Assembly: GCA_041946875.1 (NCBI GenBank)
Contig: JBHGBG010000001.1
Span: forward strand, 10,996-74,995
Length of the DNA stretch: 64,000 nt
Direction: 5' to 3'
DNA from: Candidatus Bathyarchaeia archaeon
GTDB lineage: Archaea; Thermoproteota; Bathyarchaeia; Bathyarchaeales; Bathycorpusculaceae
The position numbers and the translations under genes are program-made. The first letter of the stretch is position 1. The number at the start of each line of letters is the position of its first letter. Below the pieces are notes generated by a model, which was not told the origin of the DNA, did no database searches, and worked only from the letters and a program-made list of their open reading frames with translations. Below, one piece after another: positions 59,363 to 63,250 of the stretch.

Positions 59363-60226
59363 TCAGGCTTTCATCCTCTCGTAATGATACAGATACTCTT
59401 GGGCGTATCCTGCGTACTCTCCGAAATACTTCCTGCCCCATGAGTTCAGCCGTTCGTAGTCAGCGTTGCTCAGCGTTTCCCGCTCCGACAGCCTCTGCAC
59501 AGAGTCCACAGGAAGCTTATCCGCGTAGTGATTCAGGATGACTCGTCGCATCCAAACGTCCACGGGAAACGCCTCCAGCTTGTCCAGCGAGAACAGCAGC
59601 ACACAGTCAGCCACCTTTGGACCTACGCCTGGAAACTCGCAGAGCCCTTTCTTCGCCTCCATGTAAGGCATTCGCCTGATCCCCTCCAGGTTGAAATCGT
59701 CTTTGGCGATGCGTCTTGAGGTTGCGCTGACGTATTTGGCTCTGTAGCCTAAACCGCACTCAGCGAGGTCTTTCTCGGATGCAGCCGCAAGCATGCCGGG
59801 TTCAGGGAACGTGTAGAAACCCATGCCGTCCAGCGTAGTCCTCTCACCGAATTTCCGTGCGAGGTTGTTCAGCATGTGTCGGATGGCGGGGATGCTCTTG
59901 TACGCAGCGCAGATGTAGCTTATGAGGCACTCCCACGGGTCCTGCCTGATAAGGCGCAGTCCCCAGAAGGCTTTGAGCGCTTTGGCTATGTGCTCGTCCT
60001 TGTTTATGCTTCCGCTGATAGCCTGAAAGTCAACGTCCAAGCTGAAGTAGCGTTTCACGAATGCCTCGTCCACATTAGCGTATTCAAGCCTGCTCCGTGT
60101 CTGCCGCACCTTGAAGACTCTGTCTCTGCAGACGCCGTACCACCAGTCACCCACTTTTTCCCATCTGAAGACCTGCCCGCAGCAAACCGTCGCCTCCAAG
60201 TTAAACGGGACGACTTCAAGGTTCAC
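59363..60226 (-). CDS. ogg: 8-oxoguanine DNA glycosylase / HhH-GPD base-excision repair enzyme (Ogg-type)
   Basis: OGG_N-like CCGQVFRWEK and HhH-GPD motif FPGVGPKVADCVLLF. Confidence 0.75.
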   Translation of the reverse strand: MNLEVVPFNLEATVCCGQVFRWEKVGDWWYGVCRDRVFKVRQTRSRLEYANVDEAFVKRYFSLDVDFQAISGSINKDEHIAKALKAFWGLRLIRQDPWECLISYICAAYKSIPAIRHMLNNLARKFGERTTLDGMGFYTFPEPGMLAAASEKDLAECGLGYRAKYVSATSRRIAKDDFNLEGIRRMPYMEAKKGLCEFPGVGPKVADCVLLFSLDKLEAFPVDVWMRRVILNHYADKLPVDSVQRLSERETLSNADYERLNSWGRKYFGEYAGYAQEYLYHYERMKA

Positions 60227-62378
60227 CGCCGGTCTCCTCCATGAACTTGCTGGCAGGTGGCACCTCAGGAGACAAGCCCTTCGTCCTACGGGTTTCTGTG
60301 ATGACTTTGGCCGCCAGCTTCTCGGGCATTCTCTCCCAGCGGTCGAACAGGTTCTGCCACAAAGCTCTGCCCGAGGACATGGACCGCAGTTCCCTACTCA
60401 GCCCGAAGGTCTCCGCAACCGGGATGAACGCGGTGATGACTGCGGAGGCGCCTTTCTGCTCGAAGAACTTGATTTTGCCACGTCTGGTGGTGACAATTCG
60501 GGAGCATTCTCCGGCCAGCTCCGCGGGCAGCGTGAAGACTGTCCTGTAGACGGGCTCCAGCAAGACAGGCTCAGCGGTCAGGAAAGAGCCGAAGATGGCT
60601 TTGCCCACGGCGTGCATGATTTCGGTTGGGCTTCGGAATTCGGCTTTTTCACTCAACTGCAAGTCTTGAATGTGTACGCGCACGTGCCGCATGTTCTCTC
60701 CGCATAGGGGTCCTGCCCTGCAGGCAAACTCGAAGCCCGCGATGACGGATTCCAGCGTTTCCTCCTCGAGGTTTTCGGTTTTTCGGCTGCAGTCCAGCAG
60801 CACATTCCGATGCTCATCCACGGAGAGAATGTTGTCGTCTTCCTTGAAGATATGGACTTTTCCATCCTGAGGCATCTCCTCCTGAAGGGGTTCCACGCGG
60901 ACCGTGAACCTGTTCTGCCTGTTAGGGCTCGACGCCGTGGCTGCTGCGCCTTGCTTCGTGACGGTTTCCCTGTACACCACTCGGGGCGAGGACTCCACGA
61001 TCTCCAACCCGCTGCCCATGGCTTTCAGCTGGTTCAAGGCGACTTCCAAGTGCAGTTCGCCCATGCCGCTCAGGAGGTACTCGCCCGTTTCCTCGTTCAC
61101 CTCGACTAAGAGGTTCGGGTCTTCCGCCTCGAGTCTCCGCATTGCCTCCAGCAGGGTCTGCAGGTTCTCAGGGTTCTTGGGCTCGACCGCGACGGTCACG
61201 ACTGGTTCGGATACGTAGGTTATGCCCTCGAACGGCACCATGCCCGCCTTGTGCGCTACATCCACGAGGGTTTCGCCAGCCTTCACCGCGTCCGAAACCG
61301 CCAACGCCGCCAGGTTTCCAGCAGAGACCTCGTCGACTTCTTCCCTGAAGGAGCCCATGCTGACGTAGACGTGGCGTACGTCGGTTTCACCCAGCGCCTC
61401 GACCAAGTGCAGCCGGTCACCTTTCTTGACTGTGCCGGAGAAGACTCTACCCGCGGCAACCATGCCCACATCTGGGTCTGCCTGCACGTTCGTCACGCAG
61501 ATGACCGTGGGTCCCTCGTCGCTGCAGTCCGCCATGGCTAAGCCTGCCTCTGATTTCATGACGCCGTCCCAGATTCTCTCGACACGGTACACTTGGGCAA
61601 CCCGCGGGTTCGGAATACTCTTCACGGCCATAGCGAAAACGGCGTCGTGGACGGGCAGGACTTTCTTTAGGCTGTCTTGCTCACTTTTTGCGTACAGGTC
61701 GGCTATGTCGGCGAATCTCACGCCTTTTTGTCGCGCCATGGCTAACGTGAAGCCCCACCCGTGCAACGCCGAGCCGAAGGCAACGCTGCCTGTCGCCGGG
61801 TCCACTTTCCACTGCTCCTTGAGCGGTGTTTCTCCGTGGAGTTCGATGAGGTCGTTGAAGCTGTTGATGATGTGGGTTAGTTTCTTCTCAATCCCCTCCG
61901 CGTTCAAGTGCAGTTCGGTGATTAGGCGGTCGACCTTGTTGATGAACAGGACTGGGCGGACTCTTTCTTCGAGTGCCTGACGAGTCACAGTTTCGGTCTG
62001 CGCCATGATTTCTTCCACCGCGTCCACAACGACGACGGCGCCGTCTATGGCGCGGAGGGCTCGGGTGACCCTGCCCGTGAAGTCCACGTGCCCGGGCGTG
62101 TCCACGAGGTTAATCACGTAGCTGGCTTGCGCGGTCTTGTGAAGCAGGGTTATGTTGGCGGTTTTTATCGTGATTTTCCGCTTCTGCTCCTCTTCGAGGT
62201 AGTCGAGGACCCGGGCTGTTCCCGCCATCGTGGGAGACAGCAGCCCCGCGCCAGCCAGCAACGCGTCCGCCAGCGTGGTCTTGCCGTGGTCGATGTGGGC
62301 GATTATTCCCACGTTCCGTATGGATTCTTTCTGGCGCATGAGTTCTTGGATTTTGCCGATTTGTCTGAACCTTGGCAT
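60216..62378 (-). CDS. Elongation factor 2 family GTPase lacking the diphthamide histidine (probable aEF-2 paralogue)
   Basis: G1 AHIDHGKTT, G3 DTPGHVDF, G4 NKVD and full five-domain length (720 aa). The domain IV tip reads LSEKAEFRSPTE where canonical aEF-2 has LHEDAIHRGP.Q. Confidence 0.85.
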   Translation of the reverse strand: MPRFRQIGKIQELMRQKESIRNVGIIAHIDHGKTTLADALLAGAGLLSPTMAGTARVLDYLEEEQKRKITIKTANITLLHKTAQASYVINLVDTPGHVDFTGRVTRALRAIDGAVVVVDAVEEIMAQTETVTRQALEERVRPVLFINKVDRLITELHLNAEGIEKKLTHIINSFNDLIELHGETPLKEQWKVDPATGSVAFGSALHGWGFTLAMARQKGVRFADIADLYAKSEQDSLKKVLPVHDAVFAMAVKSIPNPRVAQVYRVERIWDGVMKSEAGLAMADCSDEGPTVICVTNVQADPDVGMVAAGRVFSGTVKKGDRLHLVEALGETDVRHVYVSMGSFREEVDEVSAGNLAALAVSDAVKAGETLVDVAHKAGMVPFEGITYVSEPVVTVAVEPKNPENLQTLLEAMRRLEAEDPNLLVEVNEETGEYLLSGMGELHLEVALNQLKAMGSGLEIVESSPRVVYRETVTKQGAAATASSPNRQNRFTVRVEPLQEEMPQDGKVHIFKEDDNILSVDEHRNVLLDCSRKTENLEEETLESVIAGFEFACRAGPLCGENMRHVRVHIQDLQLSEKAEFRSPTEIMHAVGKAIFGSFLTAEPVLLEPVYRTVFTLPAELAGECSRIVTTRRGKIKFFEQKGASAVITAFIPVAETFGLSRELRSMSSGRALWQNLFDRWERMPEKLAAKVITETRRTKGLSPEVPPASKFMEETGGEP

Positions 62379-62443: not shown

Positions 62444-63250
62444 GTGTATTTTACTGTGTTGTCACCGAAAGGGAGGAAATGTGTGAAGGACCCTGTCGTC
62501 GTCGCGGTGGAGCAACTGCATGAGGAGCCTTACGCGTCAGTCTTGTGCTATCCGAAACCCAACGACTGCGAGCTACAGCGTCGGCAATCGGAGCTGTGCA
62601 GTCTCGGGGTGACAGCCGTGGAGTTCTCGGGAACAGCCAGCGCATTCGGCGTTCCAGGTCCAATTCTGGGCAAGGGATATGTGGGCATTGTCTTAGTAGC
62701 CCACGTGGGCGGCGAGAGGTTGGCGCTCAAGATTCTCCGATTGGACGCTGGTCGTCCTGACCTGATGCACGAGGCAGCGATGCTCAAGAAAGCCAACTCT
62801 GTAGGTGTCGGTCCGAAGCTGAAGAGCGTGAGCCAGAACTTCCTGTTGACGCAGCTAATCGACGGCGACCTACTGCCCGCGTGGCTGAAGAGCCACAGAG
62901 AAAGAGAGGTGGTTCGCTCAGTTTTGAAGGAGGTCTTGGAGCAGTGCTGGCGGCTAGACCAAGCAGGCTTAGACCACGGAGAACTGAGCAAGGCACCCAA
63001 ACACGTCATCATCGACCGAGAACAGAAGCCTTGGCTCCTGGATTTCGAGACAGCCAGCGACAAGCGAAAACCCGCAAACGTCACTGCCATCTGCAACTTC
63101 CTCTTCACAAATGCAGGCACCGTAGCTACGGCAGTTGCGGGGGCGATAGGCGAAAGAGACAGAACAGAAATAGCCAGAACGTTGAAGGCTTACAGGAAGG
63201 AGAGAACCCGAGCCAGCTTCGAGCGAGTAGTTCACGTGTGTCTGGACTGA
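62444..63250 (+). CDS. Predicted small Ser/Thr protein kinase (RIO/COG2112-like)
   Basis: GKGYVGIVLVA....RLALKI (P-loop and Lys), LDHGELS....HVII (catalytic loop) and LLDFETAS (DFG-like). The start is uncertain: GTG at 62444, or GTG at 62483 preceded by GGGAGG. Confidence 0.5.
   Translation: MYFTVLSPKGRKCVKDPVVVAVEQLHEEPYASVLCYPKPNDCELQRRQSELCSLGVTAVEFSGTASAFGVPGPILGKGYVGIVLVAHVGGERLALKILRLDAGRPDLMHEAAMLKKANSVGVGPKLKSVSQNFLLTQLIDGDLLPAWLKSHREREVVRSVLKEVLEQCWRLDQAGLDHGELSKAPKHVIIDREQKPWLLDFETASDKRKPANVTAICNFLFTNAGTVATAVAGAIGERDRTEIARTLKAYRKERTRASFERVVHVCLD

Follow-up and report, generated by a model that had tools for sequence, protein, structure and literature searches.

The gene at 60216..62378 on the minus strand of a 64,000-nucleotide stretch of contig JBHGBG010000001.1 (positions 10,996 to 74,995) from a Candidatus Bathyarchaeia archaeon encodes a member of the elongation factor 2 (EF-2) family; this whole stretch is called the window. 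Our results confirmed that the gene is a real and intact second EF-2 copy, lacking the tip for moving tRNA. The results also showed that the tip-less gene goes back to the TACK-type EF-2 of its own lineage and has kept the ancestral position upstream of ogg, a gene of the 8-oxoguanine DNA glycosylase family. Its full EF-2 fold is kept and its GTPase centre is under constraint, and its decoding-centre tip is not. As a whole, we favour, with a probability of roughly 60%, the reading that the gene is a native-derived archaeal EF-2 paralogue (aEF-2p) of Bathyarchaeia, encoding a ribosome-dependent GTPase that does not translocate, and that a divergent canonical EF-2 in the same genome is the working translocase. 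That archaea, a few Bathyarchaeota among them, have tip-less EF-2 paralogues has been in print since 2018 and is not in itself new. What is added here is direction and order: the 'paralogue' would be the original gene and the working EF-2 the newcomer.

The genome of the window (G000; 2.53 Mb, 102 contigs, 94% complete) was compared with related genomes; G, g, f, L and P numbers are labels of the genomes, genera, families, loci and protein representatives in the sample. We call 'T-type' the native TACK-type EF-2, and 'X-type' the divergent canonical EF-2, whose switch I contains RQMT and whose acceptor His and second loop are both intact.

The window gene encodes a full-length EF-2 with a degenerate domain IV tip

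The open reading frame begins with ATG and encodes a protein of 720 aa with five EF-2 domains. Pfam matched GTP_EFTU, GTP_EFTU_D2/EF-G_D2, EFG_III, EFG_IV and EFG_C, which are all five EF-G/EF-2 domains, and TIGR00490, the NCBIfam equivalog of archaeal EF-2, aligned end to end with 716.4 bits, under its cut-off of 738.45. The G1/P-loop AHIDHGKTT was located at 62274..62300 on the minus strand (aa 27-35, from the translation), and G3 DTPGHVDF and G4 NKVD follow further along the protein. The preliminary description of this DNA, made from the letters alone, had reported intact GTPase motifs and full EF-2 length, together with a change of His to Phe and of Gly to Ser at the tip, and all of this was borne out. 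The degenerate diphthamide loop LSEKAEFRSPTE (60621..60656, minus strand; aa 575-586) faces the canonical [VL]HED..HRGPAQ in HMMER alignments to the archaeal EF-2 structures 8hl1 and 6q2d, where the tip is ungapped, and the tip was likewise ungapped in BLASTP against the canonical EF-2 of the same genome. In these alignments the first His is replaced by Ser576, the acceptor His by Phe581 and the Gly by Ser583.

The second loop of domain IV reads SPNRQN (60912..60929, minus strand; aa 484-489), where canonical copies have SPNKHN. A regular-expression count among 120 paralogue clusters gave SPNKQN in 56, SPNRQN in 23 and SPNKHN in 2, with 18 unmatched. The domain IV insert is about 20 residues shorter than in canonical copies, as measured by BLASTP. 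The canonical diphthamide loop motif was found in none of the best 120 paralogue clusters (64-100% identity, 696-739 aa), and also in none of the 22 orthologues examined from the genus, so the loop change is not a sequencing error. The two ways in which the claim could fall had been named beforehand as an aligned His at the diphthamide position, or a sole EF-2 whose substitution is a sequencing or assembly error, and neither was found.

A model of the protein was built by AlphaFold2 from an alignment of 96 paralogues, and it reached a mean predicted local distance difference test score (pLDDT) of 82.7 and a predicted template modelling score of 0.72. The tip was modelled at about 90 pLDDT, and switch I and residues 501-514 were modelled poorly. 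When this model was searched in the PDB with Foldseek, the top matches were archaeal EF-2 structures (E 1e-80 to 1e-74).

A second, canonical EF-2 and dph genes are present in the same genome

The preliminary description had left two alternatives, a second, canonical EF-2 with dph genes elsewhere in the genome or translation without diphthamide, and had proposed a genome search, which supported the first and gave no support to the second. A canonical EF-2 of 738 aa was found at C59:62722-64929, with VHEDPVHRGPAQ and SPNKHN at its tip; it scored 852.5 bits on TIGR00490 and was 39% identical to the window protein by BLASTP. Homologues of both copies carry source names that place the organism in Bathyarchaeia. 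The canonical copy also lies outside an rps12/rps7/tuf context. The remark that the window gene is not in such a context was therefore correct for that gene, and it does not serve to mark a paralogue, since the canonical copy lacks these neighbours too.

As for the diphthamide genes, dph2 (PF01866) scored above the Pfam cut-off, and three matches to PF01902 (dph6-type) were obtained, at C50:12328-12993, C44:5301-5957 and C27:6370-6969. The search with TIGR00522 and PF00590 did not find dph5 in this 94%-complete assembly. Because dph5 was present in 23/25 other genomes of the genus, we read its absence as a probable assembly gap, and loss of dph5 from the window organism was set aside on the same ground. 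Only one gene of the PF01902 (DUF71/diphthine-ammonia ligase) family is needed for diphthamide, and the extra ones in this 2.5-Mb genome may serve other amidations.

A separate observation concerns the X-type EF-2 of another genome of the genus (G019 C9:146016-148227), which gave two overlapping matches with an in-frame TGA, i.e. a frameshift or an assembly error in a supposedly essential copy.

The tip-less copy is the native EF-2 of the lineage

The EF-2 phylogeny of both copies, likewise proposed in the preliminary description, placed them in different clades. Two trees were calculated, for which 32 and 20 of 149 representatives were kept and fragments, intein-length proteins and most eukaryote-like rows were dropped; they had no bacterial outgroup, and three eukaryote-like rows served as root for drawing only. 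The 20 + 6 family loci were selected from match lists to cover genera and are not a random sample. All Bathyarchaeia T-type EF-2s of the order and the paralogues formed one clade in both trees (SH-aLRT 95 and 97), and the ogg-linked paralogues were monophyletic inside it in the second tree (SH-aLRT 95). The X-type copies formed a clade with support 100 on a stem of 0.40 among euryarchaeal-labelled representatives. This clade adjoins a representative whose cluster holds a protein from a Euryarchaeota/Methanobacteriota-labelled metagenome-assembled genome (MAG), in a group that includes Thermoplasmata- and Poseidoniia-labelled representatives. When all 43 Bathyarchaeia rows, a group named after the tree had been seen, were forced into one clade, the constrained tree was rejected by the approximately unbiased (AU) test (delta lnL 72.5, p-AU 0.00089).

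Affinities to known structures gave the same picture. A T-type copy scored 913 bits against crenarchaeal 8hl1 and 755-769 bits against euryarchaeal EF-2s, and the window protein keeps this crenarchaeal-first order (656 > 620 > 600 bits), whereas the X-type profile is flat (737/730/720). Cys285, Cys294, Cys553 and Cys559 are common to the window paralogue and the T-type copies and are not found in the X-type. In switch I, RQMT was found in 120/120 X-type clusters, as against RGIT in the T-type and RKIT in 102/120 paralogue clusters.

The third line of evidence is the position next to ogg, which lies directly downstream of the paralogue at 59363..60226 on the minus strand. An ogg orthologue follows the paralogue in 22/22 loci of the genus, with candidate starts mostly -11 to +36 nt from the stop, and ogg is linked to the paralogue in 11/12 sampled loci of other genera. 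It also follows tip-intact native EF-2 genes: the distance is about 45 nt in G187 and in G260, and about 770 nt in G042, whose sole EF-2 is a native copy with a fully canonical tip. Since the trees, the ogg synteny and the PDB affinities, three independent lines, agree, the tip-less copy was identified as the native EF-2.

The origin of the X-type is less firmly settled. A foreign origin is the likely reading. The nearest relative outside, P0268/P0391 (a representative from clustering at 50% identity), is only 44% identical and comes from a Methanobacteriota-labelled MAG of a 0.1-um groundwater fraction; the switch I motif RQMT is shared with this MAG protein at 44% overall identity. The scan of contigs for a donor of the X-type returned one locus only, from a Methanobacteriota-labelled MAG, and no donor can be named.

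Two side observations were made during these comparisons. At L092:301-3274 (JACRDV010000014.1), the 732-aa EF-2 of the groundwater MAG was matched over 2974 nt, about 780 nt beyond its coding length. In another family (f11), one genome with an X-type EF-2 also carries a very divergent second copy (L058; G034 C8:91071-93218) with 47% identity to the window protein and both tip loops unrecognisable. It joins the Bathyarchaeia T-type clade at its base and is possibly an older, independent erosion.

Successive stages of tip erosion are found within one family

The sampled genera could be ordered into six stages. In the first, the native copy stands alone with an intact tip (g17, g40, g45, g108 and g129). 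In the second, native and X-type copies lie side by side, divergently oriented and about 200 nt apart, and both are intact (g32, g24 and g46); g52 (L068a) belongs here with only an Asp to Asn change, both His being kept (HENPVHRGP). The third stage keeps this arrangement with the acceptor His alone changed, to Gln in g101 and to Tyr in g48 and g126, and g47 is more eroded. Ogg-linked copies with half-recognisable loops (g107 and g27) make up the fourth stage, the fully degenerate tip of the window's genus the fifth, and the sixth consists of genera in which the X-type alone was found (g36, g41, g42 and g37). These results showed that the native tip is intact where the native gene is the sole EF-2, and intact or stepwise eroded where an X-type copy is present. 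The eroded side-by-side copies were not grouped together on the tree. Such scattering fits repeated erosion, with long-branch effects as an alternative explanation.

The whole course of events that we propose from these stages is tentative, and we put it at slightly under even odds. One family would have kept every stage of a replacement: a possibly foreign EF-2 landed beside the native gene, the native copy lost first its acceptor His (to Gln or Tyr) and later the whole tip, more than once, and one clade of such copies was then kept under purifying selection with a new tip (Ser576, Glu580 and Glu586) as a ribosomal GTPase of new or narrowed job.

In addition, the neighbouring T-type and X-type genes of L061-L068 (e.g. 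G187 C7:4502-9151) were seen to lie on opposite strands with a shared divergent intergenic region of about 200 nt in at least 8 genera, with ogg downstream of the T-type copy.

Both copies are widespread in the genus and the family

A paralogue-type match was found in 22/24 other genomes of the genus, at 62-72% identity, and an X-type match in 24/24, at 40-41% identity to the paralogue query, a few of them fragmentary. In the family sample, 114/121 genomes had a match at E <= 1e-100; a hand count of the 121 gave two matches in 76, one in 38 and none in 7, these being match counts and not copy numbers. In the order sample (301 genomes), X-type copies at least 77% identical to the canonical copy were present in most genera of the family, the X-type occurred patchily in five further families, and most of the rest had a single T-type copy. 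The best 120 X-type clusters were 85-100% identical, 116 of them were exactly 738 aa long, and all had the loop motif.

Four genomes (G250 C2:59419-61512, G088 C3, G305 C54 and G199 C170) gave only an eroded copy with TIGR00490 and no canonical one; the loop of G250 reads IHEDPAMRES. The completeness of these assemblies is 88-95%, and the X-type is otherwise present in their genera where sampled. They probably reflect an assembly gap rather than loss of the canonical EF-2.

Apart from this, some paralogue-type or EF-2 matches were seen to fall in open frames of 1050-1230 aa (G351 C38:912-3089, G355 C3:61940-64132, G310 C7:94818-97010; P0243, P0249, P0261 and others), which suggests that EF-2 genes of related archaea contain inteins or are fused.

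The paralogue is under relaxed purifying selection

In the closest genome pair, the dN/dS ratio was 0.11 for the paralogue and 0.009 for the X-type. The frame of about 715 aa was open in 20/22 orthologues of the genus and in 12/12 sampled paralogues of other genera. Among 96 aligned paralogues, the mean column identity was 73%, and G1-G5, including the catalytic His of DTPGH, were invariant. Judged from these sequences, the paralogue is under purifying selection, though relaxed.

The changes are unevenly placed along the protein. Columns were counted as changed when at least 90% of 13 T-type and 17 X-type canonical copies had the same residue and the column was altered or relaxed in 31 paralogues. 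This gave 47 columns (one of them a gap column); domain IV (aa 481-593) holds 26 of these and domain II (aa 282-361) another 13. At position 581 the 96 paralogues had Leu in 29, a gap in 15, Phe in 14, Gln in 12, Tyr in 11, Met in 4, His in 4 and Ala in 3, with others fewer. New residues have been fixed elsewhere at the tip of this clade, namely Glu586 (91/96), Ser576 (71/96) and Glu580 (63/96), and Lys593 is conserved too.

A redox switch tied to ogg was also considered, as Cys285, Cys294, Cys553, Cys559 and Cys625 are conserved in the paralogue. This idea was rejected because four of these Cys are already present in the tip-intact T-type copies, and Cys625 in 4/13 of them.

The ogg overlap is inherited and uninformative on function

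The overlap of 11 nt between the paralogue and ogg, as the preliminary description had it, holds if the GTG start of ogg is used. The ogg product matched OGG_N and HhH-GPD, and TIGR00588 with 224.8 bits, below cut-off. A GGAGG at 60236..60240 on the minus strand forms part of the final codons of the paralogue and precedes this GTG by 9 nt; it is a likely ribosome-binding site of ogg. The same (T)GGAGGA recurs in the F-[LM]-E-E codons of most orthologues of the genus. Because tip-intact native EF-2 copies show the same linkage, the overlap is inherited synteny and uninformative on a new function, and the ogg operon was rejected as a functional clue.

Proposed role of the paralogue and alternative explanations

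In the reading that we favour, the X-type copy would be the working, diphthamide-modified translocase. The window protein would still dock at the GTPase-associated centre of the ribosome and hydrolyse GTP, since its G motifs do not vary and it has kept domains I-III and V. Without reach into the decoding centre, it would not stabilise the codon-anticodon helix and would not carry out normal translocation. By analogy, the job it has kept is most likely one of those EF-2 tasks for which no tip is required, carried out on the large subunit or on idle ribosomes. The best-grounded candidate may be GTP-dependent release of aIF6 from the 50S subunit, because in Saccharolobus canonical aEF-2 is reported to free 50S subunits of aIF6 (Lo Gullo et al. 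2021) and the genome of the window encodes aIF6. Splitting of idle ribosomes, or parking on them (hibernation), would be equally possible.

Several results weigh against this reading. First, the dN of the paralogue exceeded that of the X-type 2.5-9.0-fold (median 3.7) over 45 genome pairs, in which most dS values were saturated. Second, a frameshift was found in 2/22 orthologues of the genus, L024 (G023) and L032 (G016). Both have it near residue 640, at one shared A-rich E-Q-K site, and both come from assemblies with about 10 contigs; here a homopolymer error of long reads is as likely as a real inactivation. Third, some lineages do without the paralogue: in G001 of the same genus (96% complete) neither it nor ogg was found, and only the X-type was found in genera g36 (2/2 genomes), g41 (2/2), g42 (3/3) and g37 (1/1). 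Fourth, if the genomes with an eroded copy only are real, these organisms would depend on an EF-2 without the His, and the eroded copy might still translocate. Finally, the trees were quick IQ-TREE runs (LG+C20 PMSF, with SH-aLRT support only) on hand-selected rows with long branches, the group in the AU test was chosen post hoc, and the X-type could be an ancient duplicate, its nearest outside relative being only 44% identical.

Some of these results would be expected if the native copy were a slowly decaying relic, which had lost its role after the X-type took over and was kept mainly for the ogg transcript and the ogg ribosome-binding site. X-only genera and the absence from G001, the frameshifts in 2/22 orthologues, the 3.7-fold higher dN, the hypervariable tip, and the GGAGG and ogg start embedded in the 3' end of the paralogue all agree with it. 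However, an omega of 0.11 is far from 1, G1-G5 are invariant, and 20/22 orthologues of the genus and 12/12 sampled paralogues of other genera keep an open frame of about 715 aa. The changes cluster unevenly in domain IV, with Glu586 and Ser576 fixed at the tip in 91/96 and 71/96, and a transcript spacer needs no intact frame of 2.1 kb. We therefore consider a relic unlikely.

The paralogue could also be an alternative translocase that works without diphthamide, as a back-up for an X-type put out of action, for example by a toxin that ADP-ribosylates it or because the oxygen-sensitive Dph2 step fails. Its complete architecture, the fold, confidently predicted with its tip, and the intact G motifs are consistent with this, as are the earliest step of erosion, which affects the acceptor His alone (g101), and the four genomes with an eroded copy only. 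Some substitutions of the acceptor His are viable in yeast eEF2. However, both tip loops are altered here, and the acceptor-loop positions are free to vary among close relatives. Compared with canonical copies, the domain IV insert lacks about 20 residues and was modelled poorly, and the four genomes are 88-95% complete, with genera that otherwise have the X-type where sampled. Such loops were moreover judged incompatible with translocase function by Narrowe et al. Taken together, a translocase of this kind seems quite unlikely.

Coupling to ogg in 22/22 loci of the genus and 11/12 loci of other genera would suit a module against oxidative damage, in which, for example, the paralogue rescues ribosomes stalled on oxidised mRNA and Ogg repairs DNA. 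Since the linkage is shared by the tip-canonical native EF-2 genes of G187, G260 and G042, it predates the tip change, and we regard such a module as improbable. A sequencing or assembly artefact or a contaminating contig is practically negligible, and nothing was found in its favour: the contig that carries the gene is at least 75 kb long, and the gene has a GC content like that of the rest of the window and orthologues with the same neighbours in 22/24 genomes of the genus.

Comparison with known EF-2 paralogues

In eukaryotes, EFL1/Ria1 releases eIF6 from the 60S subunit together with SBDS. It may serve as an analogy only, being an EF-2-derived GTPase without a diphthamide loop that acts on the large subunit; archaea are reported to use aEF-2 itself for this release (Lo Gullo et al. 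2021). The window protein differs from EFL1 in that it nests in Bathyarchaeia EF-2 and has no large insertions (720 aa). The eukaryote-like representatives formed a separate group with support 100, with the window protein outside it, in rows that hold no named EFL1 sequence. Narrowe et al. (2018, PMC6143161) counted EFL1 among the eukaryotic EF-2/Ria1/Snu114 group.

The aEF-2p was described by Narrowe et al. in Asgard archaea, some Korarchaeota and 'a few Bathyarchaeota', and was presumed by them to be a ribosome-dependent GTPase and not a translocase. The preliminary description had suggested a paralogue of this type. Indeed, the window protein falls in the aEF-2/eEF-2 clade and has five domains, G1-G5, degenerate loops and a bona fide EF-2 as partner. 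In Asgard archaea and Korarchaeota, too, the aEF-2p is reported to keep its G motifs, to be degenerate in the HxDxxHRG loop and the second loop, and to occur beside one bona fide EF-2. There, however, dph genes are described as lacking and the tip of the working EF-2 as altered, whereas the window genome has dph2 and PF01902 genes and a fully canonical working tip. In our trees the Helarchaeota-labelled P0248 and similar tip-less representatives formed another clade (support 98; few named rows). Judging from this placement, the window paralogue appears to have arisen separately from the aEF-2p of Asgard archaea and Korarchaeota.

The closest known case is that of the Bathyarchaeota. The 2018 study placed tip-less 'potential paralogs' of RBG_13_46_16b and SG8-32-3 inside the TACK clade and reported that the canonical EF-2 copies of RBG_13_46_16b and AD8-1 branch deep, which is the same pattern of a tip-less copy in the TACK clade and a far-branching canonical copy as found here. 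The window gene is very probably an orthologue or a close relative of the RBG_13_46_16b and SG8-32-3 copies, as compared by their description and not by sequence. The authors of the 2018 study found the Bathyarchaeota pattern puzzling and considered their data insufficient to resolve it, with dph5 and dph6 undetected in two drafts. Unlike in the two or three drafts of that study, the pair was found here in 22/24 genomes of the genus and dph5 in 23/25, and the stages and the ogg synteny could be laid out. A partial literature search found no later treatment of the Bathyarchaeia EF-2 pair.

Among bacterial proteins, Tet(M)/Tet(O) are EF-G paralogues with unconserved domain IV loop tips that use GTP on the ribosome for a purpose other than translocation, a comparison made by Narrowe et al. 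Both are of the bacterial EF-G lineage, and the NCBIfam tet_protect models, which have cut-offs of 775-1425, gave only 80-168 bits on the window protein (best 168.2 against a cut-off of 775); nothing pointed to a link with antibiotics. With the canonical archaeal EF-2 structures 8hl1, 6q2d, 5h7j and 6u45, the window protein shares 40-43% full-length identity and the same five-domain fold. It differs from them in lacking both His of the diphthamide loop and the Lys-His of the second loop, and in its shorter domain IV insert.

Significance

If the proposed course of replacement is true, the family would be a living model for the birth of EFL1- or Snu114-like factors from EF-2, and the Bathyarchaeota EF-2 puzzle left open in 2018 would be resolved. 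If the tip-independent job holds, the paralogue would be a prokaryotic parallel to eukaryotic EFL1. With direction and order added, a phylogenetic oddity is turned into a testable case in which a core translation factor was displaced and the displaced copy reused, and the genomes named here allow intact and eroded native copies to be compared directly. There is also a practical side. EF-2 is a common phylogenetic marker, and automatic pipelines call both copies 'elongation factor 2', as seen from the source names of the homologues; the wrong EF-2 copy chosen in Bathyarchaeia would distort trees.

The divergent kinase-like gene upstream

A gene for a RIO/Bud32-like kinase of 268 aa lies at 62444..63250 on the plus strand, divergent from the paralogue and 65 nt upstream of it. 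The matches of its product were weak (RIO1 E 2e-4, below cut-off; Bud32 E 4e-4), and an orthologue was found in the same place in 13/22 loci of the genus and in 6/12 paralogue loci of other genera. In other organisms RIO kinases take part in ribosome maturation, and this neighbour could be a weak functional lead.

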